The notes beneath the pieces were generated by a model. The model did not search any database, was not told the DNA's origin, and was given only the letters and a program-made list of their open reading frames with translations. A program made the position numbers and the translations under genes. Of a stretch of 64,000 bases of DNA, positions 625 through 19,470 are shown piece by piece (position 1 is the stretch's first letter; every line of letters starts with the position of its first letter). Source of the DNA: an uncultured Methanoregulaceae archaeon (GTDB taxonomy: Archaea > Halobacteriota > Methanomicrobia > Methanomicrobiales > Methanospirillaceae). The stretch is taken from positions 2,432,001-2,496,000 of the forward strand of contig OY970061.1 of NCBI GenBank assembly GCA_963705255.1, read 5' to 3'.

Positions 625-1083
625 ATGAAAGAAAAATTTAAAAAAATCATCGATGAATTACCAATTTTGATGAAAAAACTAAACGAATCTCCCCTTTGCC
701 ACCGGTTAGAAACAGAAAAATTTCCTGAAAAAGGAATTTACGTTTTTTACGAGAATGGAAAGCCGATGTATACCGGCCGCTCTGAAGATATGAAAGAACG
801 CCTTAAAGCACATGGTCGTCCAAGTTCTGGTCATAATTCGGCAACTTTTGCATTTATTTTAGTTAAAGAGAACGTGATAGGCTCTGAAATTGATCTCACA
901 CAATCTAGAGAAGATCTTGAAAAAGATACAAAATTTAAACCGATTTATCGAGCGATGAAAGCCCGAGTTGCAAAAATGCAGATCAAGACCGTTGAGATTG
1001 ACAATCCTATCACACAAACTTTTTTCGAAGTCTATGCGGCTCTCGAATTGAATACACCTTATAACGAATGGGGAACTCACTAA
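625..1083 (+). CDS. GIY-YIG nuclease family protein
   Basis: KGIYVFY...MYTGRSEDMKERLKAH motif; conserved C-terminal E and N. Confidence 0.8.
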   Translation: MKEKFKKIIDELPILMKKLNESPLCHRLETEKFPEKGIYVFYENGKPMYTGRSEDMKERLKAHGRPSSGHNSATFAFILVKENVIGSEIDLTQSREDLEKDTKFKPIYRAMKARVAKMQIKTVEIDNPITQTFFEVYAALELNTPYNEWGTH

Positions 1084-2117: not shown

Positions 2118-2504
2118 TTATTTTACTAATAGTCCATTCCGCTGTAAAGCGAGAACAACTTCCATTTGTCCATTTTGAATGATCTTTGTTTTAACAACTT
2201 GATTCCATAAATTGTCCTCATTCGAACACGTTGGTTTTTCTTTTAGTATCTTGGCGGCATCAATTGCATAATTTTTGTTTTTCTTAGAATTTGTATATGC
2301 TCCCTTCGGAATCCCATGGATTAATCCAACTTCACAAAGACCCAGAAATGCAGATTTAGGACAACACTTCTTTCTCACTGATTCACTATTCGTCTGGGTT
2401 TTTATTGCTTGTTCCCACGCCTCAATGGGATCCCCCACCTTTTTTTCGGCGAATAACTTGACTGCTAAAATTGCACTATCCCCAAAAATACCCAAAATTA
2501 TCAC
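2118..2504 (-). CDS. Conserved hypothetical protein (DUF6979-like)
   Basis: K.CPKSAFLGLCE.GLI.GIP.G.YT.SKKNK.YAI motif. The real start is probably TTG near 2495, after a GAGGTGA RBS. Confidence 0.6.
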   Translation of the reverse strand: MIILGIFGDSAILAVKLFAEKKVGDPIEAWEQAIKTQTNSESVRKKCCPKSAFLGLCEVGLIHGIPKGAYTNSKKNKNYAIDAAKILKEKPTCSNEDNLWNQVVKTKIIQNGQMEVVLALQRNGLLVK

Positions 2505-2545: not shown

Positions 2546-3432
2546 TTAAATTGCTGCATATTTCGAATCTTCAAGACGATATATCTGAATTAATGCTGAT
2601 CCCTCAGCTAGATTGGAATCAGTGAAGGTTTTTAACGGCACTAAATTGTTTTCATCAATTTTGCTTTCCATATACGGTTTTTGGTGTGAACGATAATTCA
2701 TACCAGTTCGCCAACTCTTCGGAATTGGTCTTCGAATGAAAATCGCAGCGCCGAAGACCGGAACGTGCCATTGGGCAGAAGCTCCGACAAAACCTTTTCT
2801 TACAAAATCCACGACACCTTTCGGGCCTTCTTCGGATAATGGAACAAAGTAATGAACATGGCTTAGGATAACATCGACTCCTGGATTCTCCAGCTTATAT
2901 TGTTGGGGTCGTAGGTATCATAACAGATTGCTGGATAAAATCGAATTCCGTTTAAGGAAAAAATTCGTGGTTTCCCTAATTCTCCTAAACGAAAATCGGT
3001 TGTCAGTTTTACACACTTTTTTTTTTCAGTAGTTTTTACTTGATATTTTCTACCAATGGAAATAATTCCGGATTTATCAAGGGAGATTGAAATTTGATCT
3101 TCATCGAACCCTTCACGATTAAATGATCCATCAATTCCAATACTCACGACAATATGCGCTGGAAATTTTTTTAAGCAATTGCTAATTTCTTTTTCAATAA
3201 ACGGAAAAATGGACTCAGCAGGATCTTTACCGGTATGAATCCATCCTCCCGGGAACAAGATAATACCATCCCCAGATATTTCGAATGAAACTTTTTCGAC
3301 GACTCGAAATAACCCTCTGAGTCGGTCTATATTTTTTCCAATGTATGGATTGGTTTCTGAAAATCTATCATCAATTGTTTCGAGAGTTACCGTTGCAATC
3401 CATATTGATATACGAGAACGATCCGAAGTCAT
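2546..3432 (-). CDS. Carbon-nitrogen hydrolase (nitrilase superfamily)-like protein, split by a 1-nt frameshift near 2905
   Basis: Motifs IILFPGG, GRKY and PAICYD. Adding one base in GGGG joins it to KLENPGVDVILSHVH...DFVRKGF (ORF 2546-2812). Confidence 0.6.
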
Positions 3433-3441
3433 ACTGGAAAA

Positions 3442-4122
3442 TTATTGATATTCTACTGGATCCTTGATTCCAGCTTCACGAAATGCGGCTAATCGTTCGT
3501 CACATGACCCACATTTTCCACATGGTTTTTCACCGCCTTTGTAACAAGTCCAGGTCATAGAATAATCCACATTGAGCGACATACCTCGTTTCACGATATC
3601 TCCTTTGGTCATGTGCAAGTATGGGACATCCAGAATTATGTCGCTCCAATCACAAAGATGAAACGCTGTCGTCATTGCGCTGACAAATGCGGGTCGACAG
3701 TCCGGATAAATCGTGTGATCGCCTGCGTGAGCACCATAAAACAGATGGTTCGCTTTTATCCCAATCGCATATGCTGCCGCGATACTGAGTAAAACCATGT
3801 TCCTGTTAGGAACGACGGTCTGTTTCATATTTTCATCTGCATAATTTCCTTCCGGAACGGCCCAGTCCTTCCGAGTGAGTGATGAAGGTGCAATGTCGTT
3901 GAGGATTCCGACATCGATAATTTTGTGAGGGATGTGTAGTCTTTGGCAAATCTTTTGTGCACAAACGATCTCGTTGTTATGTTTTTGATGGTAATCAAAC
4001 GTTACGGCGTTGATTTCATATCCTTGATCGATCAAGTCATAGAGTAAAGTCGTGCTGTCCATGCCACCGGATAAAATGAGAACTGCCTTCCTGATCAATG
4101 AAAATTTATTCGTTTTCGTCAT
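3442..4122 (-). CDS. queC: 7-cyano-7-deazaguanine (preQ0) synthase
   Basis: SGGMDSTT, VPNRN, YPDCR, TWTCY and CGKCGSC motifs. Confidence 0.95.
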   Translation of the reverse strand: MTKTNKFSLIRKAVLILSGGMDSTTLLYDLIDQGYEINAVTFDYHQKHNNEIVCAQKICQRLHIPHKIIDVGILNDIAPSSLTRKDWAVPEGNYADENMKQTVVPNRNMVLLSIAAAYAIGIKANHLFYGAHAGDHTIYPDCRPAFVSAMTTAFHLCDWSDIILDVPYLHMTKGDIVKRGMSLNVDYSMTWTCYKGGEKPCGKCGSCDERLAAFREAGIKDPVEYQ

Positions 4123-4469: not shown

Positions 4470-5501
4470 ATGTTATCCAGTATCAAAATTATTGAGACGG
4501 CTCATGGAAATTTACAGACACCTGCATTTTTTCCGGTTTATCATCTCAACAAACGGGGAACGGTATCGTGTCCGAAATTTTGGAATGAAATTCCTGAGTT
4601 AAAAACTATGCTCGTCAATGCGCATGGTATAAAAGAATGTAAACGGTTTAAAAAAATTCTCACCCATGGTCTGGATAAACACCTCCACTTTCCCGGGATA
4701 ATTTTTGTTGATAGTGGGGGTCTGCAAAACCGTCTCTACGATTTGAAATTGGATCCATTAGAGATGTTAAGGGTTCAGGAAAAGATTGGTGCAGATATTG
4801 CCGCAACTCTCGATGCTCCGGTCTTTTCAAATGATAATATTTCTTCTATGGATCATTCTGAGCGGATCAGAATCACCATTCAGAATGCTTTGCTCTCGTT
4901 GAAAAATCGTGAACGGGAGGATATGCGACTCTACGCCGTAATTCATGGTAACGAAATTAAAGTCATGACAAACATGATTGATTATCTCAAAAGGAAAGGC
5001 GATTTTGACGGGTTTGCCATTGGGGGCCTGATTTTCAAACGATCGAATTATCGGAGTCTTATTGATCTTGTCATCGCTCTTCGGAAACGAGCCGGCGGTA
5101 AACCTCTACATGTTTTCGGGCTCGGCGGACCGACAATGATCCCTTTGCTGACGTATCTCGGTGTAGATACATTCGATTCATCATCGTTTCTTTCGGTTGG
5201 CTCGAATCGCGTTTATTTTACTCCCGAGCAAGGGTCATGGGAATTCAAAGAGATGCCCGAGATGGAATTTTTACCTTGCGTCTGTCCTGTCTGCAGTAAG
5301 AATACCTTGGAACATGTTCGCTCTGAACGAAGATTGATCGGGATGCACAATTTATGGATGATTTCTTACGAGATTCGAAAGTTGAAAATGCATATTCAGG
5401 AGGGAGACATGGATTCATATCTTGATTATCGGTTTGCAAATAACCCCCAGATAAAAATTGCGTACAAATATGCAAAAGCAAAAATCAGAGGTTTTGTATG
5501 A
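4470..5501 (+). CDS. tRNA-guanine transglycosylase (TGT)-fold protein without PUA domain
   Basis: QTPAFFPV, VDSGG, LDAP, FAIGG, LHVFGLG, GVDTFDSS, and Zn site CVCPVC...HN. Confidence 0.9.
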   Translation: MLSSIKIIETAHGNLQTPAFFPVYHLNKRGTVSCPKFWNEIPELKTMLVNAHGIKECKRFKKILTHGLDKHLHFPGIIFVDSGGLQNRLYDLKLDPLEMLRVQEKIGADIAATLDAPVFSNDNISSMDHSERIRITIQNALLSLKNREREDMRLYAVIHGNEIKVMTNMIDYLKRKGDFDGFAIGGLIFKRSNYRSLIDLVIALRKRAGGKPLHVFGLGGPTMIPLLTYLGVDTFDSSSFLSVGSNRVYFTPEQGSWEFKEMPEMEFLPCVCPVCSKNTLEHVRSERRLIGMHNLWMISYEIRKLKMHIQEGDMDSYLDYRFANNPQIKIAYKYAKAKIRGFV

Positions 5502-6340
5502 GGCAAACAATGCGTCCGGTCTCATTGAGTCGAGTTGTCGAGACAGCGGATTTCGCGAGAAAAAAAGGAAAATTTAGTAGTAAGGATTTAGCCGAATTTT
5601 TAAAATCTTCACCGTCAAGAGGAAAAGAAATTGCAGAAGAGTCAGTAAATATTGGCATTCTGGCAAAAGAGAATGAGTTTTACATTCCCACAGTGTTGTG
5701 TTCTCTATTCCTTAACGCTCTACGACAAAATGATTGGAAAGGAATTCACCACATAATGATGGATTACTCCTTTTACCGGAAATTTTTTAAAATTCTTGAA
5801 TCGATTGAACCGTCAAATCCGGAAGAGATTCTTTCAGCATTAGGAAAATCAACAATCCCCTTCAATGAGGTTTCCCGTCAGGTTCTCTGCGACTGGGGAG
5901 AGCGTATAGGTTCGGTCCAGCGCAATATTTTCACGAACCAGTATTTTACAATCAGGGATTCAGGTCAGTCAATTATTCCCTCATTCCTTGATACGTACCG
6001 ATCACTGAACGTTAAAACCGGGTTGTCACTTCGACAGAGATATGTCGAGATTCCAAAGGTACGGGAATCTGTTTGCCAGGAATTGAAGATCTCCCGTGAA
6101 AATTTTGATCTGCGTTTCATAGATTTATGTCAAAAAAACATCGGAAAGATCGAACTTGCGGGAGCTCCAGTAACAACCCATGCAAAAAAATCCTCAAAAA
6201 AAGTGAAAAATGTGCAGTTTCTTGAACTTCAAGACAAAATCACGATGAAATTGTCATCGAATCAGTTTCTTAACGGCGTAATGGTTGGAAGAAAATCATA
6301 TTATTTTGTAGCATATCATGGCGGTGAATTGATTGACTGA
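5498..6340 (+). CDS. Hypothetical protein, probably with winged-helix repeats
   Basis: 280-aa ORF overlapping both neighbours; HTH-like N-terminus (FSSKDLAEFLKSSPSRGKEIAE). Confidence 0.6.
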   Translation: MRQTMRPVSLSRVVETADFARKKGKFSSKDLAEFLKSSPSRGKEIAEESVNIGILAKENEFYIPTVLCSLFLNALRQNDWKGIHHIMMDYSFYRKFFKILESIEPSNPEEILSALGKSTIPFNEVSRQVLCDWGERIGSVQRNIFTNQYFTIRDSGQSIIPSFLDTYRSLNVKTGLSLRQRYVEIPKVRESVCQELKISRENFDLRFIDLCQKNIGKIELAGAPVTTHAKKSSKKVKNVQFLELQDKITMKLSSNQFLNGVMVGRKSYYFVAYHGGELID

Positions 6341-7514
6341 ATTTTCTCTGACTTTAAAAAATAAAGATTACTCTAAATATGGATTAGCTGGGAATCCCTT
6401 CCCTTTCTCCGGAGTGCCTGACGAACACCCGAGTATCTACATTGGCCAGGATGAAGTGCTCGAACGAATTAATTCTGTTTTGTCTTCGACAGTGTTATCG
6501 CACCAATCAAGCCACCTCATTATTACCGGATCGTATGGGAATGGTAAGAGTCATACCCTCAAATTTATCAAATCCCATATTCGTGACGAATTTTCTGATA
6601 AGTCGCCTAAGAAAATATGCGTCGGTTATGTTTCACAACCCGGGGAGACCTTCCTCGATATATATACGAAATTCATGTACGATCTCGGCTATCATTTCGT
6701 GAAGCAGTTGTCGCAATCATACCTTGGCCAGATCGCGTATCAACTATCCAAAGAGGGTCTGATCGATGCCAAAATCCGTAAAGGCCAAGGGTGGAAACGA
6801 ATAGAGAATGGCGACGTTTTGATATCCGATATTGTTCCCAAGGCTATTGAACGATTGAATGACAGGATTAAGTTCGTAGATTTTACCCGAGCTTTCATCG
6901 CAATGTCGTACGAAGAAAATTCCATTTACTCATGGGAGTGGCTCTGTGGTGAAGGGGTCGAGTACAACAAACGGCACGAATTGTCCCTCGGAAAAAATCT
7001 CAACGATACGAATTCCATCCGTGCATTTGGAGCATTGAAATTTATCCTGGAAGATCTGGACTACTCTTCGATCGTTCTTCTGATCGATGAATTCGAATAT
7101 ATCGAGACGCTCCCCCCGCTCAAGAAGCAGAAATTACTAAATTCACTCCGGCACATCATCGATATGAATGGAGAAGGACTCTCGATGATTATTGCCTGTG
7201 CGCCGGAAGTCTGGCAGACGATTGTCGCCGAGTATCATGCATTTTCCGAACGTATTGCAAAGGAGACGAATCTCAAACCTCTTGACCAGGATAAAATCCG
7301 GTTATTGCTGATGTCGTACCTCAACAACAAAAGAGAGAAAAATCAGAAATCGCTTCTCCCCTTTACTGACGATTCAATTGAAGAGATCTTCCAGATTTCG
7401 CAGGGAAATACCCGTCGTGTGATCTCCCTTTGTAGTCAGGCCCTCGATGCCTCATTGCAATTTAACAAGCCAACGATCGATCGTGAGATTCTTGATTCGG
7501 TAATTGCCGGATAA
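6333..7514 (+). CDS. AAA+ P-loop ATPase (BrxD/DUF2791- or Orc/Cdc6-like)
   Basis: GLAGNPF N-terminus, Walker A GSYGNGKS, WEWLCGE, Walker B LLIDEFE, sensor GNTR. Confidence 0.85.
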   Translation: MTEFSLTLKNKDYSKYGLAGNPFPFSGVPDEHPSIYIGQDEVLERINSVLSSTVLSHQSSHLIITGSYGNGKSHTLKFIKSHIRDEFSDKSPKKICVGYVSQPGETFLDIYTKFMYDLGYHFVKQLSQSYLGQIAYQLSKEGLIDAKIRKGQGWKRIENGDVLISDIVPKAIERLNDRIKFVDFTRAFIAMSYEENSIYSWEWLCGEGVEYNKRHELSLGKNLNDTNSIRAFGALKFILEDLDYSSIVLLIDEFEYIETLPPLKKQKLLNSLRHIIDMNGEGLSMIIACAPEVWQTIVAEYHAFSERIAKETNLKPLDQDKIRLLLMSYLNNKREKNQKSLLPFTDDSIEEIFQISQGNTRRVISLCSQALDASLQFNKPTIDREILDSVIAG

Positions 7515-7517
7515 GAA

Positions 7518-7912
7518 TTGAAATCTAAAATTTTTGAAAGACCAGGAGAACATATTCCAATGTTCATATTCCGGGATAATGCAACAATCTTCACGGACAT
7601 CACTGGAAGGTTGAGGTTTGGGTCGATGGGGAAGTTGATGAAAAGACACAGATTGTTGTCGATTACAATACAATCAAGAAAGTGATTGAACGGTTTGACC
7701 ATATGGTAATCCTGAATCGAAAGGACCCAATGATCTCCTGCCTCGAACGATATCAATCGGTCGTATCGGCAGATGGGGATCCAACGAGTGAGCTCCTGGC
7801 TCTTCACTTTAAAAATATGCTTGAAAATGATGAGGATTTCAAGAGGGCTGATGCGAAGGTGACGCGGATTAGAGTTTGAGAATCACCGACGAGTTGTGCG
7901 GAGATCATATAA
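7518..7912 (+). pseudogene. queD: 6-carboxy-5,6,7,8-tetrahydropterin synthase pseudogene
   Basis: One frame reads G*CNNLHGHHWKVEV...VVDYNTIK...FDHMVILN...PTSELLA...RIRV*ESPTSCAEII. In-frame TAA at 7577 and TGA at 7877; the 5' end is out of frame. Confidence 0.85.
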
Positions 7913-7936: not shown

Positions 7937-9926
7937 TCATTGGGAAAAAAATGATTGCCAAAGCTCTTGCAAAAGAATTACTCCGATGACGTGTTCTGCA
8001 TTTTCCCTCTTTAAAATGTAGTTACATCCATAATATGGCCGACTTTGAGAATTTTCTTGAGTGATTTGTTGCAATTCATAGTCCATCAAAATTGCTTGAG
8101 TGTCCCACGCAACAATCAAATTAACCTGATCGAAGTACTTTTTTGACGGTTCTGATTCAGACCGCATCAAAATTTTCAATAATATCATCTAAAGTTACTT
8201 TTACTTCACACCAATGACCGTCTCGTTTGTACCGGTTATGATTATCAAATAATCCTGAATATAATCCCAAGGGGTTGCCCTGTGAATATTCTGTGATAGG
8301 ATTTTTCTCTAATAAATAATTAAAGAAAATATCATATCGGGAACTTGAACCAGGTATTCCATTTACTTTGTATCCTAACAATTTATCTCGGGAAATTAGT
8401 TCGAGAAATAAAGTTAAAACCTCACTTTCATAAATTGGTTCTTTACTTAAAATTTTTGAATTTGTAAGATTTTGGCGATTTGAATTAATTTGTTCTTCGA
8501 GTTCTCGTAGTTGTTGACGTGCAGACGCAAGATCAGTCGTTCCATGTCGGGTTTCTTCACCAACATGGATTAAATTCTTCTGATACCGATTCAGTAGTCG
8601 GTTAATTGATTCATTGATAAATTCAATCAATTCGGTTAGTTCAACGGGATATGTTTTTCTGCCGATATCCGGCCGCAATTTTTCATTAAAATGATACAAA
8701 ACAAAAAGCCTTTTTTGAATTTGAGGAGGTAATGTAACGGGAATTAAATCATTTACAGCACCCACGGGCATTGATGTTGTTCCAATTAAAAAACCACCTT
8801 TTATCTGAATATCATATTGATTTCCATTAAGTGCCCCGTATTTTTCTTTATAATACGTATTTTTATGAGATAAGCAGAAGTAAATTTCGGGCCTATATTT
8901 TTCCAATAGTTCATTGATTTTTTGAAACTTATTGAATCCTTCAATTTGCTCTTGTGTTGAGGATTCTCGCTCTAGACTCGATAAATAATTTCCGAATACC
9001 AGTCGTATTCCATTATAATCTAATTCGTCCCAAATAACTTCGTACTGTCGAGTGACTGAAGTCGTTACTAATGTTGTATATTTTACTTGTTTTCCTTCAA
9101 GTGAATATGAATGAGGATAAAACATGCCCGGCGAAAATAAAATCGGCGTACCATCCGAAATTTCAGATATATATGATAAATAAATTTTACATTGTTTAAC
9201 CCATTCAGGAAGCGATTTATTTATATTTATATAACCTGCAGCTGTTCTCGTCAAAAGAAGATGTTTCCAAAATTCTAATTTATTTCTTCCACCTATCACT
9301 TTAATTTTTTTAATCCCTGATAAATCACCAAATATAATCTTTGCATAGGTACCTTTCGAAGTTGTATCAAGTTTATTTGTAAATAGAATTCTCCTATTTA
9401 GCGGGGGAATTGCAGTCGTTGAAATTTCGTCATGAGGTGTGTTGTGCAACCAAGAGGCACCACCTTCATATTTCGCTTGATTTTTATCAGTTTCACTCAC
9501 TTTCGAGTGAAATTCAATATAATCATGCCCATGTAAAACATAAGTCATTGCAACTCCTTTATGTCCGCGCATTGGAGTCGTATAAATTAAATTTTTCAAG
9601 GATAAATTTGGTTTAAAAACATCTTTGAAATGAGTTGAATCAACACCACATCCGTTATCAATTACTTCTATTAGATTTTGACCAGACCTGGCATCAATGT
9701 TAATTTTAAGCCATGGATATAGGTTATCGTCAGTTTCATCAAAATGAGTTTCGTCTTTCCACCTTTTTTCTAAGGCATCAAAACTATTCTGAACTAATTC
9801 AATAATAATATCGAATTTGTCGTGATAACTATCTACGATATTTTTCACCATTGTGAAATACATCACATTTTTTACATCTTCGGAAATATCCGCGGAATCA
9901 AATGGTAAGAATTGATCATCAGGCAT
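7937..9926 (-). CDS. GHKL (HATPase_c/MORC-like) ATPase fused to a C-terminal PD-(D/E)XK-like nuclease domain; frameshift near 8160
   Basis: ELVQNSFDA, VIDNGCG, RGHKGVA, GTYAKI. C-terminal YD...EVK continues into QVNLIVAWD in ORF 7937-8188. Confidence 0.7.
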
Positions 9927-10107
9927 TTTTTCCCTCTTTTAAACCTGTTCATTTATTGCTTAGTTTGATTTTTTACACTTTACTCAGGTTCACCTATCTA
10001 TATATTCCTATTTTGAATAGAGCTGGTTTAACAAAAACGAGATCGTAGAACAAAAAATTACTGACGATCTATGCGAGATCAGGTATTTTATAGGATGAAT
10101 AAAAAAA

Positions 10108-10932
10108 TTATTTTGATAGATACTGTCCTAAAGTACTGTTCTCAAACAGTACAGGTTTTTTTATGTGAATCGTGTTGATGTCGAATTTTCCACGATGTAA
10201 TTCCAAATAATTTTCCTTAACCAATTTATTAACAATTTTTTGAAGTATGTCTAAAGAGAGGGTTCCTTTTGAGAAAAATAAATCAAGATCCGAATAGAGA
10301 TTGCTCTCTTTTACAGCATCCATCTCCAATTTATTGAGCACGGTTTCCAAATCTTTCATTGAAAGAAGGTCAATTGCTTTTCCTTCCAATCCTGGGTCAA
10401 ATTTCACTACAGGGCCAGAGGTATAATAAACACTCAAAGATTTTGACCACGATCTTAAACCCCCCTCAGCATATTTATTCAAGCCATGTAGTTTTTTAAT
10501 TTCATCAATAATTTTTTCGTAATCTGAGAACCCTTCTCGAATCATTTTTACAAAATCGCGGAAAACTGCATTATGGCTATACATATTCTTGAAAAAAGTA
10601 AATGAGACAAATGAATCCCATTCACCATTTGCACAACGAGATGCCACTCGTTTGCCAAGTATGCTTAAACTTTCATTTTCGATAAACTCCAATTTTTTTA
10701 ATAATTGAATTTGCGAGGAGATATGCTCACGAGAAACATTTTTAAACAACTCCCCCTCAGTCCTCCTTTTCTTCTCGTTATAAAAATTAAGAATATCATC
10801 TTCAAAATTCTGAAGAGGTTTGGAATCCAATTCAATATTCAGGAGTATTTCAAGAATTTCACAACAAGTACTCATTTTAGTTATTGAAAGTAAATGTTTT
10901 GAGATTTCAGAGGTGTTTTGTCGTAGAGCCAT
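10108..10932 (-). CDS. Hypothetical protein, probably with winged-helix repeats
   Basis: 274-aa ORF abutting the stop of the large ATPase; segments LKKLEFIENESLSILGK and IVNKLVKENYLEL are wHTH-like. Confidence 0.6.
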   Translation of the reverse strand: MALRQNTSEISKHLLSITKMSTCCEILEILLNIELDSKPLQNFEDDILNFYNEKKRRTEGELFKNVSREHISSQIQLLKKLEFIENESLSILGKRVASRCANGEWDSFVSFTFFKNMYSHNAVFRDFVKMIREGFSDYEKIIDEIKKLHGLNKYAEGGLRSWSKSLSVYYTSGPVVKFDPGLEGKAIDLLSMKDLETVLNKLEMDAVKESNLYSDLDLFFSKGTLSLDILQKIVNKLVKENYLELHRGKFDINTIHIKKPVLFENSTLGQYLSK

Positions 10933-13911
10933 TTACGATACCTTATAAGTCGCACAGAGCACATCACTCTCTTCTAAAAATCTCACAAATTCCCTTGCCT
11001 TTTTATCATCCAAGCCAAATTCCTCTCCAATAGATTCGATTGTGTATACTTTATTTGGTTTAAAAAGTGATTTGAAGGTTGGACCCAATCTTTTGAATTC
11101 ATCATCGAGAGTCACTTCAAGGGCTTCATACATTTTTCCATTATTAATCAATGTTCTGCAATTTGCAATTCTCTTATCCATATCATCAACAATTATTTTT
11201 ATTTTTTGAAGGTGGGATTTGTTTAAAAATTGTTCATAACGACGGAGAAGTAGGTTTGCTTCACCATATTTTTCTGATAAAGATTTAATGTGTGCAGTTG
11301 CTCTTTGGCCAAGGTCTGCATAAGTACCATGCAATGTCGATAGTTTCGTCTCAACGATATTGATATTATCACTTTTTCTAATTATTTCCCAATCTTCTTT
11401 CAATTTTTTTTCGTCGAGGTCAAGGACCTTCTTTTTCGATGCAGTAATCAATTCAGCAATATTGAAGTCTTTTAAATCACGTTCTAAATTTTTCCCCTTT
11501 GACGAAAACGCATTATATTTCGCTATCAGTTCCTCAAAAACCGGTTTAGATGCGAGGATGTATTTTTCGAGATCGCTCCGATCCAAACTCTGTTCAAGTT
11601 CCTTATCGAACTTCACTAATTCCTTTTCTAATTGTGAATCTTTGAATTTTAATTTCTTTAAATCTTGAATTGCGGAAGTTAGTGCAGTTTTTCTTGTATT
11701 ATACGTCTGGGAGATTTCAAGGATAAATGATATGAATTTGTTAGACCGTGCAACAACATCCTTTACTCTGACATCGTAGGTATACAGGTTGATAAAATTA
11801 GTGAAAATATTATCAGTAGGTTTGAACGCGGTGATCTCTTTTTTTATCTGAGAAAGCTGATTATCGAACGCGGAGATTTTGCTATCAAATTTTTCAATTA
11901 ATGTATCTCCAGCAACCTCCCGACTTGCTTCAATTGAACTACTCATTTCTTTGGAATATGCAATAATTGAATTATTTAACAATGTTCTTCTATCTTCGAA
12001 CACTCGAATTTTTAAACCATCGGTAATCTGTAATTTTTTTAATAATGAAACTGCAGCCTCGATAGGTCGGTTTTCTGAATTGAGATAAAAGACTTCTTTC
12101 CATAAGTGATCCGGATTAAAAATTCCCCGAGACACAATCTGATTATACCAATAAGGGGTTGTAAAACCAGCACCATCGAAAAATCCACACTCCATTAAAA
12201 TATCAGTATTAATTTTCTGTGTCTCACACTTTGATAAACTCTCTAAATTTTTAATAAATATTTCATAGTCTTCATCATTTTGCAGCTTGGCTCCCAACAA
12301 ATGAGGGATATAGTGCTGCTCCCTATTTTTTTTATAAAATGCATTTATCTTTTCAATTATTGATGTGATTTGAGGGGATATCTCTTCACGCCCTTTGTTT
12401 AACTCACCTACGGACAAGAGATTTTCATCAAACAAAGAATATCGAATCATCATCTCTGGAGATGAAGGTAAGACGAGGATTGCTTCATTCTCACCAACTT
12501 TTTTTGATTTGTTTTCTTTATTCAGGACATATACACAGAAAATGTCCGTACTGGTTTTGGGGTCACTTCCCTTTTTTACAGTAAGAGGAATCTTTGCTTT
12601 TTCACCAGGAATCGAGCATGCAATTTTCTTTGTTTTATTATCAATACTGAAGCGATCGGAACAGTAAGGTAAAATTTTACTCATTTTTTCAACAGCTAAA
12701 TCAAGCTGCAATTCAGGATTTGTTAGGAGACCCTTGCTTGCATATTCCTTGTATTTCTCTCTCGCAGGTCGAGTATCCTTTAACTCTACAAGGTCAATTT
12801 CAGATTCTTTACCTTTTTCCTCATGTTTCTTCGTATCGACGCGATGACTTCCGCTCTCTAACTGCCATTCGTTAACTTTCGCTTTATCAATATCTCCTCC
12901 TCCACGCCGATTTATATAAAAAAGAATGTCATGGCAGTTGATGATAAACTGCCTGAACGAGAAATGATCATTCGAATCTTTTGAAATTTTAATTATAAGG
13001 TGGATACTCTCCCGTGTAAAAGGATTAAAGTCATCGATTCCCGTTGTTTTTATCCTGCTCTTCTCTAACCGGATTTTTACATAATCTAAAGCATCTTGTT
13101 CAGAAAATGAAGATAAGGGAATTATCCGTTTGAGGCGTGTCTCTAATGCGTTATTAATACTATGAATACGCTGATAGGTAATATCGGTCATATAGAGGAA
13201 CAATGCAACAGGGAATTTCTGGTCCTGTTTTCCTTCCTGAATATAGCCAAGTAAATCTCTTAAATATTTCAAATCTCGTTCAATCTGGGATGTTGTCATG
13301 GAGGCCATGCCCCAACGATCTTCGACCTCATCGATATGAATTACGACGCAGTCGTGCCTACCAATCGTCGTAAGAGCATCGATGTACCCGTACCAAGTGC
13401 TCATAAGGTAAGTCGCTCTTCGGAGCTCGTCTTTATTGGATTTTTCAAGTTTTAATTCTTTAAAAGATAATTCCAGAGCATTTTTCAAACAGGTGCTGAC
13501 TTTTTCCTGGTCCAGGGTATTACAGGCAATTTCAAGGCGGTTTACGATTAATGCAAGAATAAAAAACGGGTCATCATAGGTCCCACTTTCCATGCGGATA
13601 TAGATGTGTTCCGTTGATGGGTGGTATTTACGGGAGCGATCTATTAATTTATAAGCGAGATGTGTTTTCCCGGCGGAGGGCTCTCCTTTGACAACAGCGG
13701 CGATAAGTTTCCCGCCCCGTCGGGCCATATCAATGATTTCATCGCCTTGTTTCAATTCCGTTTGTCGTAATAAAGAATCTTCAACAGATATGGTGGGATC
13801 AAACTCTCCCTGAGGTTCAAAAGGAATGTATTTTAGATTTAAATTCGCAAAACCGTTTGCTGATTCTTGAATTATCTTCTTGACCGCCATGATTTCGCCT
13901 GATTTTACCAT
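10933..13911 (-). CDS. Large AAA+ ATPase with a long C-terminal coiled coil and terminal wHTH
   Basis: Walker A GEPSAGKT, Walker B IHIDEVE, FNPFT. The K/E/L-rich C-terminal third ends IESIGEEFGLDDKKAREFVRFLEESDVL. Confidence 0.75.
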   Translation of the reverse strand: MVKSGEIMAVKKIIQESANGFANLNLKYIPFEPQGEFDPTISVEDSLLRQTELKQGDEIIDMARRGGKLIAAVVKGEPSAGKTHLAYKLIDRSRKYHPSTEHIYIRMESGTYDDPFFILALIVNRLEIACNTLDQEKVSTCLKNALELSFKELKLEKSNKDELRRATYLMSTWYGYIDALTTIGRHDCVVIHIDEVEDRWGMASMTTSQIERDLKYLRDLLGYIQEGKQDQKFPVALFLYMTDITYQRIHSINNALETRLKRIIPLSSFSEQDALDYVKIRLEKSRIKTTGIDDFNPFTRESIHLIIKISKDSNDHFSFRQFIINCHDILFYINRRGGGDIDKAKVNEWQLESGSHRVDTKKHEEKGKESEIDLVELKDTRPAREKYKEYASKGLLTNPELQLDLAVEKMSKILPYCSDRFSIDNKTKKIACSIPGEKAKIPLTVKKGSDPKTSTDIFCVYVLNKENKSKKVGENEAILVLPSSPEMMIRYSLFDENLLSVGELNKGREEISPQITSIIEKINAFYKKNREQHYIPHLLGAKLQNDEDYEIFIKNLESLSKCETQKINTDILMECGFFDGAGFTTPYWYNQIVSRGIFNPDHLWKEVFYLNSENRPIEAAVSLLKKLQITDGLKIRVFEDRRTLLNNSIIAYSKEMSSSIEASREVAGDTLIEKFDSKISAFDNQLSQIKKEITAFKPTDNIFTNFINLYTYDVRVKDVVARSNKFISFILEISQTYNTRKTALTSAIQDLKKLKFKDSQLEKELVKFDKELEQSLDRSDLEKYILASKPVFEELIAKYNAFSSKGKNLERDLKDFNIAELITASKKKVLDLDEKKLKEDWEIIRKSDNINIVETKLSTLHGTYADLGQRATAHIKSLSEKYGEANLLLRRYEQFLNKSHLQKIKIIVDDMDKRIANCRTLINNGKMYEALEVTLDDEFKRLGPTFKSLFKPNKVYTIESIGEEFGLDDKKAREFVRFLEESDVLCATYKVS

Positions 13912-13952: not shown

Positions 13953-15354
13953 ATGAAGTGTGAGAGACACTATGTCGTGACATCGGATTTATCATCAGAT
14001 GCTTATGATACATCGCGGTTAGGTATTATCATCCGTGATTCTGAGGGTGCATTTTACCAATCCAGAATCGAATGTGAAAAAACCGTCCGGCAAATAGAAT
14101 CTGAACTGGATCGGCATGCACTTCTTATCGATCCCGAAATCTCAAATCCGAATCCTGAAACAAAAATAAATTATGTAGCGATTGACGGAACGCGGGATAT
14201 TCTCGAAGGTCAGACTCATGCGCGTCTGTTCGCAGGGGCATTTGCGGTGTATGGAGAATTCAACAAGACCGTGGATATCACAGAAATTCAACGTAGTTGT
14301 GCTTTCAGTGTAGTATCATTGCCTTACAAAATATTGACATCCGGAAATGATTACATTACAGAGAGTGCAGGTTCTGTTACGAATCTACTCATGCTTTTAG
14401 CGGAAATTTATGTTGCAAAAACATACGCTGATAATGATAGCAAGGATCTTGATTTAATATTACTCGATCGCCCCCTCTGTGGGACGCTTGCACATACTCG
14501 CACCGCCCTATCCCCGCATAGTATTCTCAAAAAACTGGGAGCTGAAAAATATTCAAAATGACAAAAATCTCGATTCAGCTATTCCCATTTTTGAAGATAT
14601 TTGCAAACGGCTATTTGTTGAATCGCTTGCGGAACCTCTTAAAATTGAGGGGGAACACCTGTCTTCCGATGATCTAATGTATCTTTGTCGGGTGGGAATG
14701 AATGCCTTGTTCAGGATCTGTAAAGAGAAAAATATTGAATTGATCGGGGTCACAAAGACCACGAATGACTGCTCCTTTTTACGGTTATTGATAACACTGA
14801 ATGCGATGGAAGGTCGCGATACTAAGAAAATCTATAAAATTCTCTCCCAGATCGATGATTGCAAAATGCTCGGCAGTTGGATTAGTCCCTATCAGAAACT
14901 TGTCTGCACAAGGGAGTATGATACTGCCTTGATGACGATAATGGTTGACGAGTCAAAAAAATTGAGAGAACTTGGGGGTGGGGGGCAGGTTCCCCAAAAA
15001 CTGATTGTGCGTTCATACATGAGTTTTGGGTTACCAAACAAGGGGGGATTTATTTTTGCTGTTGAGCGACTGGTTTTGAAAAATGAAAAATCATCGACTA
15101 TCATGTTACCCAAAAATACCGAAATTTACCTCTATGCAAAAGAAGGAAATAAAAGCCAGTTAAACATATTTCATCTTCTCAAAAACATGTGCACCGGGGC
15201 ATTTCCCGAAGCATTGTACTATCCGCTGCCCCTTGCACTCGCACATAGGTTTGCAAAATCGAATTTTGATTATATCAGGCCCCGGTTAAAGGCAACAAGC
15301 CGAGTATTCGGAACAGAGTACGGGTTTAATGACCTGAAGAGAGAGTTCACATGA
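13953..15354 (+). CDS. nurA: NurA-family nuclease, frameshift near 14500-14560
   Basis: VAIDGT, LILLDRPL, IGVTK and YPLPLALAH motifs spread across two ORFs; overlaps herA. Confidence 0.8.
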
Positions 15355-17230: not shown

Positions 17231-18968
17231 ATGCGTTTCTTCATTCCCGAATGGGACGACCGGGTAGACCCTGGCTACGATTTTCATTCCGATATGCACT
17301 CCCCGTCTCATAAGGCGAACCCAACAAAAAATGGCGCATACATGTGGGATATATTTGGAATAGAGAACATGCCTTTTGATGGTGTTCTGGTTTCAATCGC
17401 CACATTACAACAAAATAAGACGAAATACCAGTCTCTTCTCGGATCCGGAATTCACGAATTGCTTCACCTTCCAAAAAAAATTGAGATTTTAGCAGATTGT
17501 GGAGCATTCTCTTACATTGATAAAAAAATTCCCCCGTACAGAACCTCTGATGCCCTTAAACTCTATCGTGACGGTGGATTCGATTACGGTGTGAGTGTCG
17601 ACCATTTAGTTGTCCCAATGTATAAAGAGCAGAATCAAGCGAGGATAAAAATCACGTACGAGAATGGGGTTGATGCTTTTCAACTGTGGAGAAAAAAGTA
17701 CAAATCGGACTTTCAATTAATTGTCGCCGTCCAAGGATCGGAAATTAATGATTATATCAACATGTTTGATAAGTTCTATAAAAGGGGAATTCGCCATTTT
17801 GCATTCGGAAGTCTGGTTAGGGCTCCAACTTTTTTTATCATCAAACTCATAACAAGCCCTCATGGAAAATATTAAGTCAACCAATAAACATCCAGAATTC
17901 ATACATTTTTTCGGAGTAGCCCGATGTGCTCTTTTTCCAAAATTCAAGGAACTTGAGGAACTCACAGGAATTCAAGTTTCTTTTGATTCCGCCTCGTATC
18001 TGAGAAAAGCTTGGTTGACTTCAGCAAATACGCAATTCAATTATATTGATCAAGCATGGGAGGGTTACTCAGCAATTCGGATCCCCCCAAAACTTTCACG
18101 ATCGAAGGAAGAAAATCTCGATCATACTGAATATGAGATGATGTCTCAAAAGTGTCTAGAAGCATTACGAAATTTTGACGATGATAAAATTAGTCTTGAT
18201 GATGCACTGAATGAATTAAAAACATTCATCGAAAAAAGAAAGGACGATCCAAAATTACTCTCATATTACGAACGAACTCTAAAGTCAAAACCCTGGAAGA
18301 CCTGTCCCTGCCCGATTTGTAATGATATCGGAATAGATGTTATGATATTCCGAGGAAATAATCGTAACCGCCGCCGTGGTTTTCACAATATTTATACCTT
18401 CAATCAATTGGTGAAAGACAATTCTAAATGGGGAATATGCCAGAAAAAAGAAACCGCTAGACGAATGAAATTACAAGAAAGAACAAACCTCGAATTCCTG
18501 AAAAAAGGAATGAAGGTCTTAATCATCACAGCATGCAGTAAAAACAAACTCGGCTGTGATAGCTCAATATCAGCTCCAGCAAAAGAAATGTACCTGGGCA
18601 CACTCTTCAAAAAAGTGAAATTATATGCAGAAGTAATGAAATTCGAATATAGGATAATCTCAGCAGAACATGGCCTGGTAAAACCCGATCAAGAAATTGA
18701 AGGTTACGATAAAAAACTTCGAACGAATGGAGATATCGAATATATTCGGCCAGGTGTCGAAGAAAAGATTAGAGAAGAATTTTCTCACTATGATAAAATC
18801 GTTGTAGTTGCTGGAGAGAAATACCGGGAAGTTTTAGTGAATGTTTTCGATGAGAGATTTTATTTTTTGAAGGCAAGAGGGATCGGAGATCTTATCAGTA
18901 TAGTTTCAAAGGCGATTCCGAAACATAAATCATTGAGCAATTTTTTGGTTTCTGAAACAAAAGAATAG
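17231..18968 (+). CDS. dpdA: DNA-guanine transglycosylase DpdA fused to a YaaA/DUF6884-like C-terminal domain; frameshift near 17855
   Basis: MRFFIPEWDDRVDPGYDF, DCGAFSY, SVDHL, HFFGV, SFDSAS, CPCPIC, IFRGNNRNRRRGFHN. C-terminal IITACSKNK...PAKEMYLG...IISAEHGL...IEGYD. Confidence 0.85.
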
Positions 18969-19435: not shown

Positions 19436-19470
19436 CTCGAATCTTACGTGGCACTCATTCGTCCGGGAAA

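Follow-up and report, generated by a model that had tools for sequence, protein, structure and literature searches.

We describe a short archaeal transglycosylase gene, of the tRNA-guanine transglycosylase (TGT) superfamily, that probably serves DNA rather than tRNA. It lies in a stretch of 64,000 nucleotides from an uncultured Methanoregulaceae archaeon (contig OY970061.1 of assembly GCA_963705255.1, positions 2,432,001 to 2,496,000 of the forward strand), and we call this whole stretch the window. The gene for the short TGT is followed by genes for a 280-amino-acid (aa) protein and an AAA+ ATPase, and these three genes, here called the trio, share an island with preQ0 synthesis genes and with a gene for DpdA, a DNA-guanine transglycosylase. 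The short TGT is best explained as a second DNA-directed transglycosylase, because its catalytic set is invariant and its gene is coupled to those for a protein that models as a triple winged helix-turn-helix (wHTH) and for an Orc1/Cdc6-like ATPase. We give about even odds that the trio is an ATP-driven DNA-guanine transglycosylase module, derived from the archaeal tRNA enzyme ArcTGT and working beside a fusion of DpdA to a DUF6884 domain. In the best reading of the whole, the trio, the DpdA–DUF6884 fusion and the preQ0 genes would together form the conserved DNA-marking half of archaeal Dpd-like defense islands.

The membership of the short TGT in the TGT superfamily is clear. PF01702 matches the 343-aa protein at 134.3 bits (cut-off 26.3) over profile positions 8–355 of 357, which is the whole TIM barrel, and both the catalytic aspartates and the CxCxxC...H zinc site are present. 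The nearest solved structure is that of P. horikoshii ArcTGT (1iq8), matched at 135 bits over chain residues 27–348 of 582, the catalytic domain alone. In this alignment, D81, D115 and D236 of the short TGT correspond to D95, D130 and D249 of ArcTGT, and C270, C272, C275 and H293 correspond to the zinc ligands C279, C281, C284 and H307. None of these seven residues varies across an 18-sequence family alignment. The pocket stretch G185-L186-I187 falls opposite ArcTGT G196-V197-V198, and the V197/V198 position is described as the determinant of specificity for preQ0 rather than preQ1 (PMC5699537). The sequence stops where the C-terminal domains of ArcTGT (C1, C2 and PUA) would start, at position 343 of TIGR00432 and residue 348 of 1iq8. 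The initial annotation of the window, made from the sequence alone, had recognized both the full catalytic and zinc motif set and the missing PUA and C-terminal domains, and the alignments bear it out on both. The isoelectric point (pI) was considered as a hint of DNA binding and dropped as non-discriminating: of nine methanogen family members, including the window protein, seven lie at pI 9.0–9.25 and two at 6.0–6.6, and TgtA catalytic domains span 5.4–9.4.

The short TGT falls outside the named classes of TGT-fold proteins to which it was compared. Its top NCBIfam model is TgtA (TIGR00432), matched over model positions 12–343 of 441, but at 185.4 bits it scores below the equivalog cut-off of 350, and it lacks C1/C2/PUA and lies outside the TgtA clade described below. 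The DpdA model NF041059 gives 36.3 bits, below its cut-off of 200, and aligns to just 119 residues; the PADLOC DpdA model gives 36 bits. The ArcS model NF040592 gives 67.9 bits against a cut-off of 440, over residues 128–337. The PADLOC model for the TGT of CBASS (the cyclic-oligonucleotide-based antiphage signaling system) matches weakly, at E 1e-4 over residues 195–242. The short TGT is nevertheless not of the Cap10 class: its zinc site is kept, its QueC neighbor is canonical, and no CD-NTase appears among the scanned neighbors.

The genome has a tRNA pathway of its own. Searched with PF01702, the whole genome matches at just two places: the island gene, and a frame of 491 aa at G000:C1:655812-656780 (-), with 282 bits. 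The latter is the housekeeping tgtA, which arcS directly adjoins, and this tgtA–arcS pair is 1.78 Mb from the island. Since the genome has a separate tgtA beside arcS, the island TGT is an extra copy. Housekeeping queC and queD genes are also present, at 2.237–2.239 Mb (queC at C1:2237245-2237874). A phylogeny was built from 72 rows by a quick IQ-TREE run, with Shimodaira–Hasegawa-like approximate likelihood ratio test (SH-aLRT) support only, and the catalytic domains of three archaeal DpdAs served as the root; the haloarchaeal DpdAs, which have a large insert, and the frameshifted dpdA of the window were excluded. The short TGT proteins form their own clade of 25 rows with a support of 98. 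The 26 long TgtA rows, containing this genome's own TgtA (484 aa), form a separate clade (support 94), and the nine bacterial Tgt rows a third (support 100). The DpdA rows are likewise separate (support 100), and the branch of ArcS is long and unresolved. Another group of short TGTs, of 345–384 aa (P0078, P0079, P0154, P0141, P0156 and P0137), branches beside the family with a support of 82–86. The initial annotation had named clustering with housekeeping TgtA and being the only copy in the genome among the signs that would refute its reading; the island gene shows neither, and it stands apart from the bacterial Tgt and DpdA clades as well.

The short TGT is accessory, because 17 of the 401 genomes in a sample of the phylum, this one included, match at 430 bits or more, with frames of 342–386 aa. 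The other 77 matches in that sample, all housekeeping tgtA, reach at most 210 bits in frames of 479–571 aa. One of 11 other genomes of this genus has a short TGT. Nine haloarchaeal plasmids carry a family member. A word-indexed search listed 76 clusters at 224–783 bits, all of 224–361 aa, before the scores fall to 134 bits; its named sources are Methanoregula, Methanoperedens, Methanosarcina, Methanofollis and Haladaptatus. An exhaustive search of representative proteins returned 1242 at E ≤ 0.001, of which the first 15 rows have 162–369 bits and at most 356 aa; below about 148 bits, the matches are mostly TgtA-like proteins of 500–720 aa. Judging by sequence, then, the short TGT is not the housekeeping tRNA enzyme: the C-terminal domains are gone, tgtA and arcS stand elsewhere, the clade is its own and the gene is accessory.

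The two partners of the short TGT are encoded directly behind it, in overlapping frames. The 280-aa protein has no match in Pfam, NCBIfam or PADLOC, and no family match even at E ≤ 10. Its AlphaFold2 model (mean predicted local distance difference test score, pLDDT, 89.5) consists of three helix-helix-helix-hairpin units and a small C-terminal beta domain, and so the protein models as three tandem winged helices plus a beta domain. Residues 8–78 superimpose on a MarR-type wHTH with Z 11.1 and a root mean square deviation of 1.4 over 70 residues. A whole-chain Foldseek search with the model gives weak tandem-wHTH rows, including SelB, RPC62, SspB (6juf, TMq 0.38) and FokI; these are generic, and nothing in the PDB appears at E ≤ 0.001. 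The ATPase matches PF10923 at 43.8 bits and the PADLOC model of BrxD at 35 bits, which reads as BrxC/BrxD-like. Its Walker residues, G69–K72 and D252 E253, are invariant in the family. No PDB chain matches its sequence at E ≤ 1, but its AlphaFold2 model (pLDDT 91.2) is Orc1/Cdc6-like with a C-terminal helical or winged-helix end. The best Foldseek rows are 2qby, 2v1u, 1w5t and 7jgr, with archaeal Orc1/Cdc6 closest, and TnsC and MuB are also among the rows. From these models and the invariant Walker motifs, both partners would be DNA-handling proteins.

An ESM-Atlas score of 0.77 had suggested that the partners are paralogs of DpdG, DpdI and DpdH, and hhalign does not support that lead. For the 280-aa protein, the probability is 0.4% against E. 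cloacae DpdG, 0.1% against an 11-sequence DpdG profile and 0.2% against DpdI; for the ATPase against DpdH it is 7.3%, and the match is to the P-loop only. Co-folding of the short TGT with the 280-aa protein, using family alignments, scored 0.00, a result that speaks for neither outcome. The initial annotation had the short TGT heading an overlapping operon with a wHTH-like protein, an AAA+ ATPase and queD; the first two belong there, with overlaps of 4 and 8 nucleotides (nt), and the third is a remnant.

The trio keeps constant company. A pattern scan, with one genome per species, yielded 80 loci, of which 58 (numbered L003–L060) have a family member, and their neighboring genes were searched by tblastn. 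The 58 loci span methanogens, Bathyarchaeia, one Aenigmatarchaeota metagenome-assembled genome (MAG) and roughly thirty haloarchaeal genera. The 280-aa protein is encoded in 56 of them, in 54 directly downstream of the TGT gene. The ATPase is present in 57; its gene comes directly after that of the 280-aa protein in 47 by a gap test and in 5 more by overlap, and in five Bathyarchaeia-type loci it is directly upstream of the TGT gene. The linkage within the trio is thus strict. A DpdA homolog is found inside the fetched flanks of 51 of the 58. Three of the seven loci without one are on contigs that end within 3.6 kb. L003 and L006 share the architecture of the window, in which dpdA is 12.7 kb downstream, past the fetched flank, and in Methanosarcina sp. 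Mfa9 DpdA is about 16 kb from the short TGT. The trio genes overlap each other, and in haloarchaea DpdA is 79–141 nt away from them. In L041, a Natrinema pallidum contig, the family member is alone, with neither the wHTH protein nor the ATPase beside it and no DpdA found in the genome; this gene may be a remnant or represent a different use of the enzyme.

The rest of the loci divides into a recurrent part and a changing part. Clustering of the open reading frames (ORFs) in 59 sequences, the 58 loci and the window, finds queC in 29 loci and queD in 43, and the haloarchaeal cassettes contain folE, queE, queD and queC. It yields no further family common to most loci besides these four. The putative effectors change with lineage. 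In Methanoregula and Bathyarchaeia loci, a UvrD helicase and a PD-(D/E)xK nuclease are inserted. In Methanosarcina, there is a 1118-aa P-loop protein with a DEAD helicase, and in haloarchaea phospholipase D (PLD) nucleases with giant DUF1998 helicase frames. An annotated Haloferax plasmid also has Csa3 and a DpdH-like protein. What the island in the window has instead is HerA, together with a 992-aa P-loop protein and several orphans. Because the nucleases change around a constant module, the module is most simply read as the half of a restriction-modification-like system that does the marking, and a shared modification core fits because the effectors vary while the module stays. This conservation across archaea escaped the initial annotation, as did the pseudogene state of queD and the frameshift in dpdA here. 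No description of the trio was found in a full-text literature search that did not take in the BRIGADE and BRC supplements, the 2016 PNAS Dpd paper or the MMBR 2024 review.

The DpdA of the island, which the initial annotation had already placed there, is of the bDpdA type. Its C-terminal half (17862-18968) matches the NCBIfam DpdA model at 145 bits, the PADLOC DpdA model at 130 bits and DUF6884 at 68.8 bits. DUF6884 is described as related to YaaA, the family of DpdC (PMC11701544). Compared to L004, L005 and L009, the window dpdA has one extra base near seven consecutive T, and the resulting +1 frameshift, somewhere from about 17830 to 17875, splits it. In L004, DpdA is a continuous protein of 574 aa that matches S. 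Montevideo DpdA (7ui4) at 183 bits over residues 1–390 and has DUF6884 at its C-terminus. It keeps the motifs DCGAF, SIDH and FDSS, aligned with the stretches that hold D95, D130 and D256 of 7ui4, residues described in PMC10164549. The haloarchaeal DpdAs are larger, at 964–967 aa (L044:6956-9859; L104:17027-19921), and the matches to the N- and C-terminal halves of the window protein are about 390 residues apart in them; DUF6884 lies near residue 780, and the extra segments have no Pfam match. In the haloarchaeal loci L065, L066, L069, L070 and L073, a DUF6884 gene is directly upstream of a different TGT-like gene (25–31% identity to the short TGT), and these pairings lack the wHTH protein and the ATPase.

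Bacterial DpdA is described as inactive without DpdB and ATP (PMC10164549). A tblastn search with E. cloacae DpdB at E ≤ 1e-3 finds nothing in the 59 sequences, as a single query that distant forms may escape; the control, E. cloacae DpdA in the same search, is found in 52 of the 59. The absence of a DpdB match and the presence of the ATPase in 57 of the 58 loci both fit the suggestion of the initial annotation that the ATPase does the job of DpdB.

We envision the module as follows. The wHTH protein and the ATPase would bind duplex DNA, locally open or bend it, and present a target guanine to the arcTGT-type active site. There, D236 would act as the nucleophile and D81 as the general acid/base, and the guanine would be swapped for preQ0 or a close derivative, supplied by the island queC together with the host pathway. 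DpdA–DUF6884 would write marks, mature them, or both, in parallel, and the lineage-specific effector genes would attack unmarked DNA. We infer the DNA substrate from gene linkage; the identity of the base, a physical complex of the three proteins and the split of labor with DpdA are presumed in the same spirit. Somewhat less likely than the module itself, though still with a fair chance, is a second recruitment of ArcTGT to DNA, separate from that of DpdA. A branch reduced to the catalytic domain would then have turned into a DNA-guanine transglycosylase, with the Orc1/Cdc6-like ATPase loading it onto its sites and the triple wHTH protein providing specificity, and the islands would have two writers with distinct motifs, strands or bases.

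Several observations weigh against a second DNA writer. The same islands have a bona fide DpdA with its catalytic motifs, next to which a second writer looks redundant, and phage DpdAs are described as sufficient alone. By its catalytic domain, the short TGT is nearest to a tRNA enzyme. The counts overstate the number of independent observations, since many of the 58 loci come from closely related haloarchaea. In the window itself, the frameshifted dpdA and decayed queD mean that the island may not be fully functional. Viral contigs give six hits to the short TGT, the best at 37% identity over part of the protein, and among 25 phage records the best is 65 bits. Because the protein is essentially absent from viruses, anti-restriction contexts lend no backing to the proposed role. 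A viral origin of the short TGT was rejected on the same hits, which include no close relative.

The alternatives assign the trio a different substrate or a different task. We consider it unlikely, though worth serious attention, that the trio merely assists DpdA. It would then replace DpdB, with the short TGT either pairing with DpdA, as QTRT2 does with QTRT1, or handing over the DNA, and with the ATPase as the energy step. The dependence of bacterial DpdA on DpdB and ATP (PMC10164549) and the failure to detect DpdB would both be accounted for, as would the company of DpdA in the 51 flanks and, at its greater distance, in Methanosarcina; in L041, the sole locus whose genome has no DpdA, the other two trio genes are missing too. 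A pure helper needs no intact active site, however, and yet all the catalytic and zinc residues are invariant. Moreover, the trio genes are coupled to one another and not to dpdA, and the order relative to dpdA varies by lineage. A role as reader or effector seems to us improbable. The module would probe the guanines of incoming DNA and, at unmarked sites, remove the guanine or form a covalent intermediate, thereby damaging or flagging the foreign DNA. The best family of the ATPase, BrxC/BrxD of the BREX system, points in that direction, as does the likeness of its model to the target-selecting AAA+ proteins TnsC and MuB, and the islands are defense islands with variable nucleases. Against this, the module co-varies with the preQ0 genes and DpdA and not with any single effector set, and hhalign finds no homology to the restriction-side proteins DpdG, DpdH and DpdI (probability 0.1–7%). 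Of the other functions proposed in the initial annotation next to a second DNA-directed transglycosylase, which is the best fit, base salvage is unsupported, and excision of 7-deazaguanines is chemically unlikely given the TGT mechanism.

The remaining alternatives we find harder still to credit. A spare or specialized archaeosine-type transglycosylase, for example one that keeps tRNA modified during infection or alters it, would agree with ArcTGT as the nearest characterized relative and TgtA as the best NCBIfam model, and ArcTGT without its PUA domain reportedly retains activity. This is quite improbable, as all three C-terminal tRNA-binding domains are missing, the genome already has tgtA and arcS, the linkage to DNA-binding partners and DpdA is strict, and only 17 of the 401 sampled genomes have the gene. 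We see very little chance that the enzyme deazaguanylates a protein or small molecule, as in Cap10/Cap9 of type IV CBASS, with the wHTH protein or the ATPase as the target. A QueC gene does sit beside the TGT-fold gene, as is described for type IV CBASS (10.1101/2025.04.06.647259), and there is the weak PADLOC match at E 1e-4. But Cap10, as described there, has no zinc site, whereas that of the short TGT is invariant; the linked QueC is canonical, at 219 bits against 150; haloarchaeal copies come with a full folE-queD-queE-queC pathway; and no CD-NTase is found among the ORFs scanned. It is equally doubtful that the island is simply decaying in this genome and that the short TGT no longer has a role here. 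The queD pseudogene has several lesions, and dpdA and two orphan genes are split. However, the trio ORFs are intact, some of the breaks are probably assembly errors (four indels relative to short-read contigs, one of which would rejoin a gene), and housekeeping queC and queD are available elsewhere in the genome.

The features of the island are collected in Table 1.

Table 1. Features of the island in the window, by window coordinates.
Feature	Position	Strand	Evidence
DUF6979 gene, left side of island	2118..2504	-	PF22399, 144 bits
Orphan next to queC, two ORFs (2863-3432, 2546-2812)	2546..3432	-	ORF calls; no Pfam/PADLOC match
Island queC (7-cyano-7-deazaguanine synthase), divergent from TGT operon	3442..4122	-	PF06508 234 bits, TIGR00364 219 bits
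Short arcTGT-type transglycosylase, 343 aa, ATG start	4470..5501	+	ORF call, Pfam, NCBIfam, alignments, tree
280-aa protein, no named family	5498..6340	+	ORF call; start overlaps TGT stop by 4 nt
393-aa AAA+ ATPase, Orc1/Cdc6-like, TTG start	6333..7514	+	ORF call; overlaps 280-aa ORF by 8 nt
queD remnant (pseudogene)	7581..7879	+	Open frame, 5' end lost, nonsense codon 7578-7580
589-aa protein, possible effector-side gene	8157..9926	-	PF13589 (GHKL ATPase) 20.9 bits, below cut-off
992-aa P-loop protein (10933-13911), then 274-aa protein (10108-10932)	10108..13911	-	AAA_22 22.4 bits, below cut-off
Orphan, two overlapping ORFs (13953-14561, 14479-15354)	13953..15354	+	ORF calls; no Pfam/PADLOC match
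HerA-type translocase ATPase, 605 aa	15351..17168	+	PF01935 55 bits; PADLOC HerA 118 bits
bDpdA-type DNA-guanine transglycosylase fused to DUF6884 (YaaA/DpdC-like)	17231..18968	+	NCBIfam, PADLOC, Pfam
Probable right edge of strain-variable island	19461..19462		Metagenome contigs and G+C step

The first 20 kb of the window have a G+C content of 0.33–0.45, against 0.55–0.64 further right. Contigs from three metagenome runs match the window to the right of 19461/19462, and on the left side they carry two different unrelated sequences. This junction is a probable edge of the island because the contigs diverge leftward from it and the G+C content exceeds 0.5 beyond about 20 kb. The island queC is the second copy in the genome and is canonical by TIGR00364 (219 bits, cut-off 150). 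The DUF6979 gene has homologs adjoining queC or the short TGT gene in the Methanoregula-type loci L004, L005, L006 and L009. In L006, the orphan next to queC is a single ORF of 294 aa, at 8075-8959 (-), and the other orphan is one of 463 aa. The 589-aa protein has no homolog in the 80 fetched loci; it is missing even from L003 and L006, where the island is otherwise shared. The 992-aa and 274-aa proteins are a candidate effector or sensor pair; homologs of the pair are found in L003 and L006 only, among the fetched loci, and neither protein has a PADLOC match. The 992-aa protein was also considered as a relative of DpdH, but BLASTP gave nothing significant against E. cloacae DpdH, the 1119-aa haloarchaeal protein (L104) or the 1118-aa Methanosarcina protein (L007). 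At the left of the low-G+C region, a small ORF at 625-1083 (+) has a weak GIY-YIG match, at 21 bits, below the cut-off.

This copy of the island is partly damaged, and partly, it seems, misassembled. Metagenome contigs from short reads, with an identity to the window of 99% or more, have single-base indels relative to the assembly at 2904, 4225, 4285 and 14544. There is a contig with an extra G behind 2904, and a contig lacks one base at 14544, which falls in the overlap of the split-orphan ORFs, where L003 and L006 read straight through. Some of the gene breaks in the window are probably assembly errors, because the contigs disagree with it at these four indels and one of them would rejoin a split gene. 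The frameshift in dpdA is possibly another such error. For queD, true decay is more likely, given its several lesions. An in-frame TAA stands at 7578-7580 where L003 reads AAA, and the first 25 or so codons are unrecognizable. In the genome search, PF01242 positions 17–118 lie over the remnant, with two stops inside. The intact homolog, at 13123-13524 of L003, has 133 aa. The three trio ORFs are intact in the window. L006 is the closest relative, a Methanoregulaceae chromosome with 91% identity, and its short TGT at 10001-11033 is split into ORFs of 259 and 109 aa, either by a frameshift or by an assembly error.

If the trio is a second writer of DNA marks, these islands would have a widespread archaeal form in which two transglycosylases differ in ancestry and an ATPase like a replication initiator stands where bacteria have DpdB. 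How a base-exchange enzyme reaches duplex DNA would also receive a testable answer. The chromosomes of many haloarchaea and methanogens would then be predicted to contain 7-deazaguanine. Genetic tools are available for cultured carriers, among them the hosts of the Haloferax plasmids and Methanosarcina sp. Mfa9; Haloferax gibbonsii ATCC 33959 is a further cultured carrier.

Bacterial Dpd islands and phages are the known settings of 7-deazaguanine in DNA, and both have a single DpdA-type writer. Among the systems that bring TGT-fold proteins into defense, Cap10 of type IV CBASS is similar in that a TGT-fold protein stands beside a QueC-family gene in a defense context. It is described as having lost its zinc site, with a remodeled nucleic-acid surface, and as binding the CD-NTase (10.1101/2025.04.06.647259), whereas the short TGT keeps the zinc site and has no CD-NTase neighbor. 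BREX-related capture (BRC), in its systems with TGT and GNAT, is described as joining a TGT homolog, HerA, an AAA+ ATPase of the ORC/Cdc6 type and a DNA-binding protein with a tripartite wHTH, and its authors propose an NTPase in place of DpdB (PMC12839542). The island resembles it in having HerA along with the ORC/Cdc6-like ATPase and the tandem-wHTH protein. However, the defining components of BRC are PglZ, DUF6079, a STAND NTPase and DUF4007 (PMC12839542), none of which has a match among the window proteins scanned; HerA is present in only 3 of the 58 trio loci; and the 280-aa protein shares only the tandem-wHTH layout (SspB 6juf, TMq 0.38).

BRIGADE is described with a gene cluster for making a 7-deazaguanine derivative and is reported in halophiles only (bioRxiv 10.1101/2025.09.15.676423). 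The main text of that preprint, as far as it goes, makes no mention of a transglycosylase, TGT, DpdA, QueC or BrxD (10.1101/2025.09.15.676423). Haloarchaeal relatives of the module adjoin DUF1998 (YprA-type) helicases, PLD nucleases, a Csa3-like regulator and a DpdH-like protein, and by gene content the haloarchaeal versions sit in BRIGADE-type islands. The defining DUF1998/MZB helicase is found in the haloarchaeal relatives G406 and G407. In the present genome, the sole MZB match is at C1:2229173, about 200 kb from the island. The module differs from BRIGADE in also occurring in Methanoregula, Methanosarcina, Bathyarchaeia and the Aenigmatarchaeota MAG, and the window has HerA and orphans.

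The two closest comparisons are to ArcTGT and to Dpd itself. ArcTGT/TgtA is the nearest characterized relative of the short TGT and shares its TIM barrel, three aspartates, zinc site and preQ0-type pocket stretch. The short TGT differs from it in lacking C1/C2/PUA, in scoring 185 bits against a cut-off of 350, in its separate clade, in being accessory and island-borne, and in its DNA-binding partners. With the bacterial Dpd system of Salmonella Montevideo, the island has in common a bDpdA, a YaaA/DpdC-related domain, preQ0 genes, an ATPase, and nuclease and helicase neighbors. By the definition of canonical Dpd, DpdA is present and DpdB is not detected in the 59 sequences, as judged by one tblastn query. 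PADLOC finds no match to DpdD–K among 13 window proteins, only hits of the DpdA and DpdC type, and a haloarchaeal relative has a DpdH-like protein. The archaeal island differs from bacterial Dpd in that its DpdC-like domain is fused to DpdA and in that it adds the arcTGT-type enzyme, the triple wHTH protein and the Orc1/Cdc6-like ATPase.

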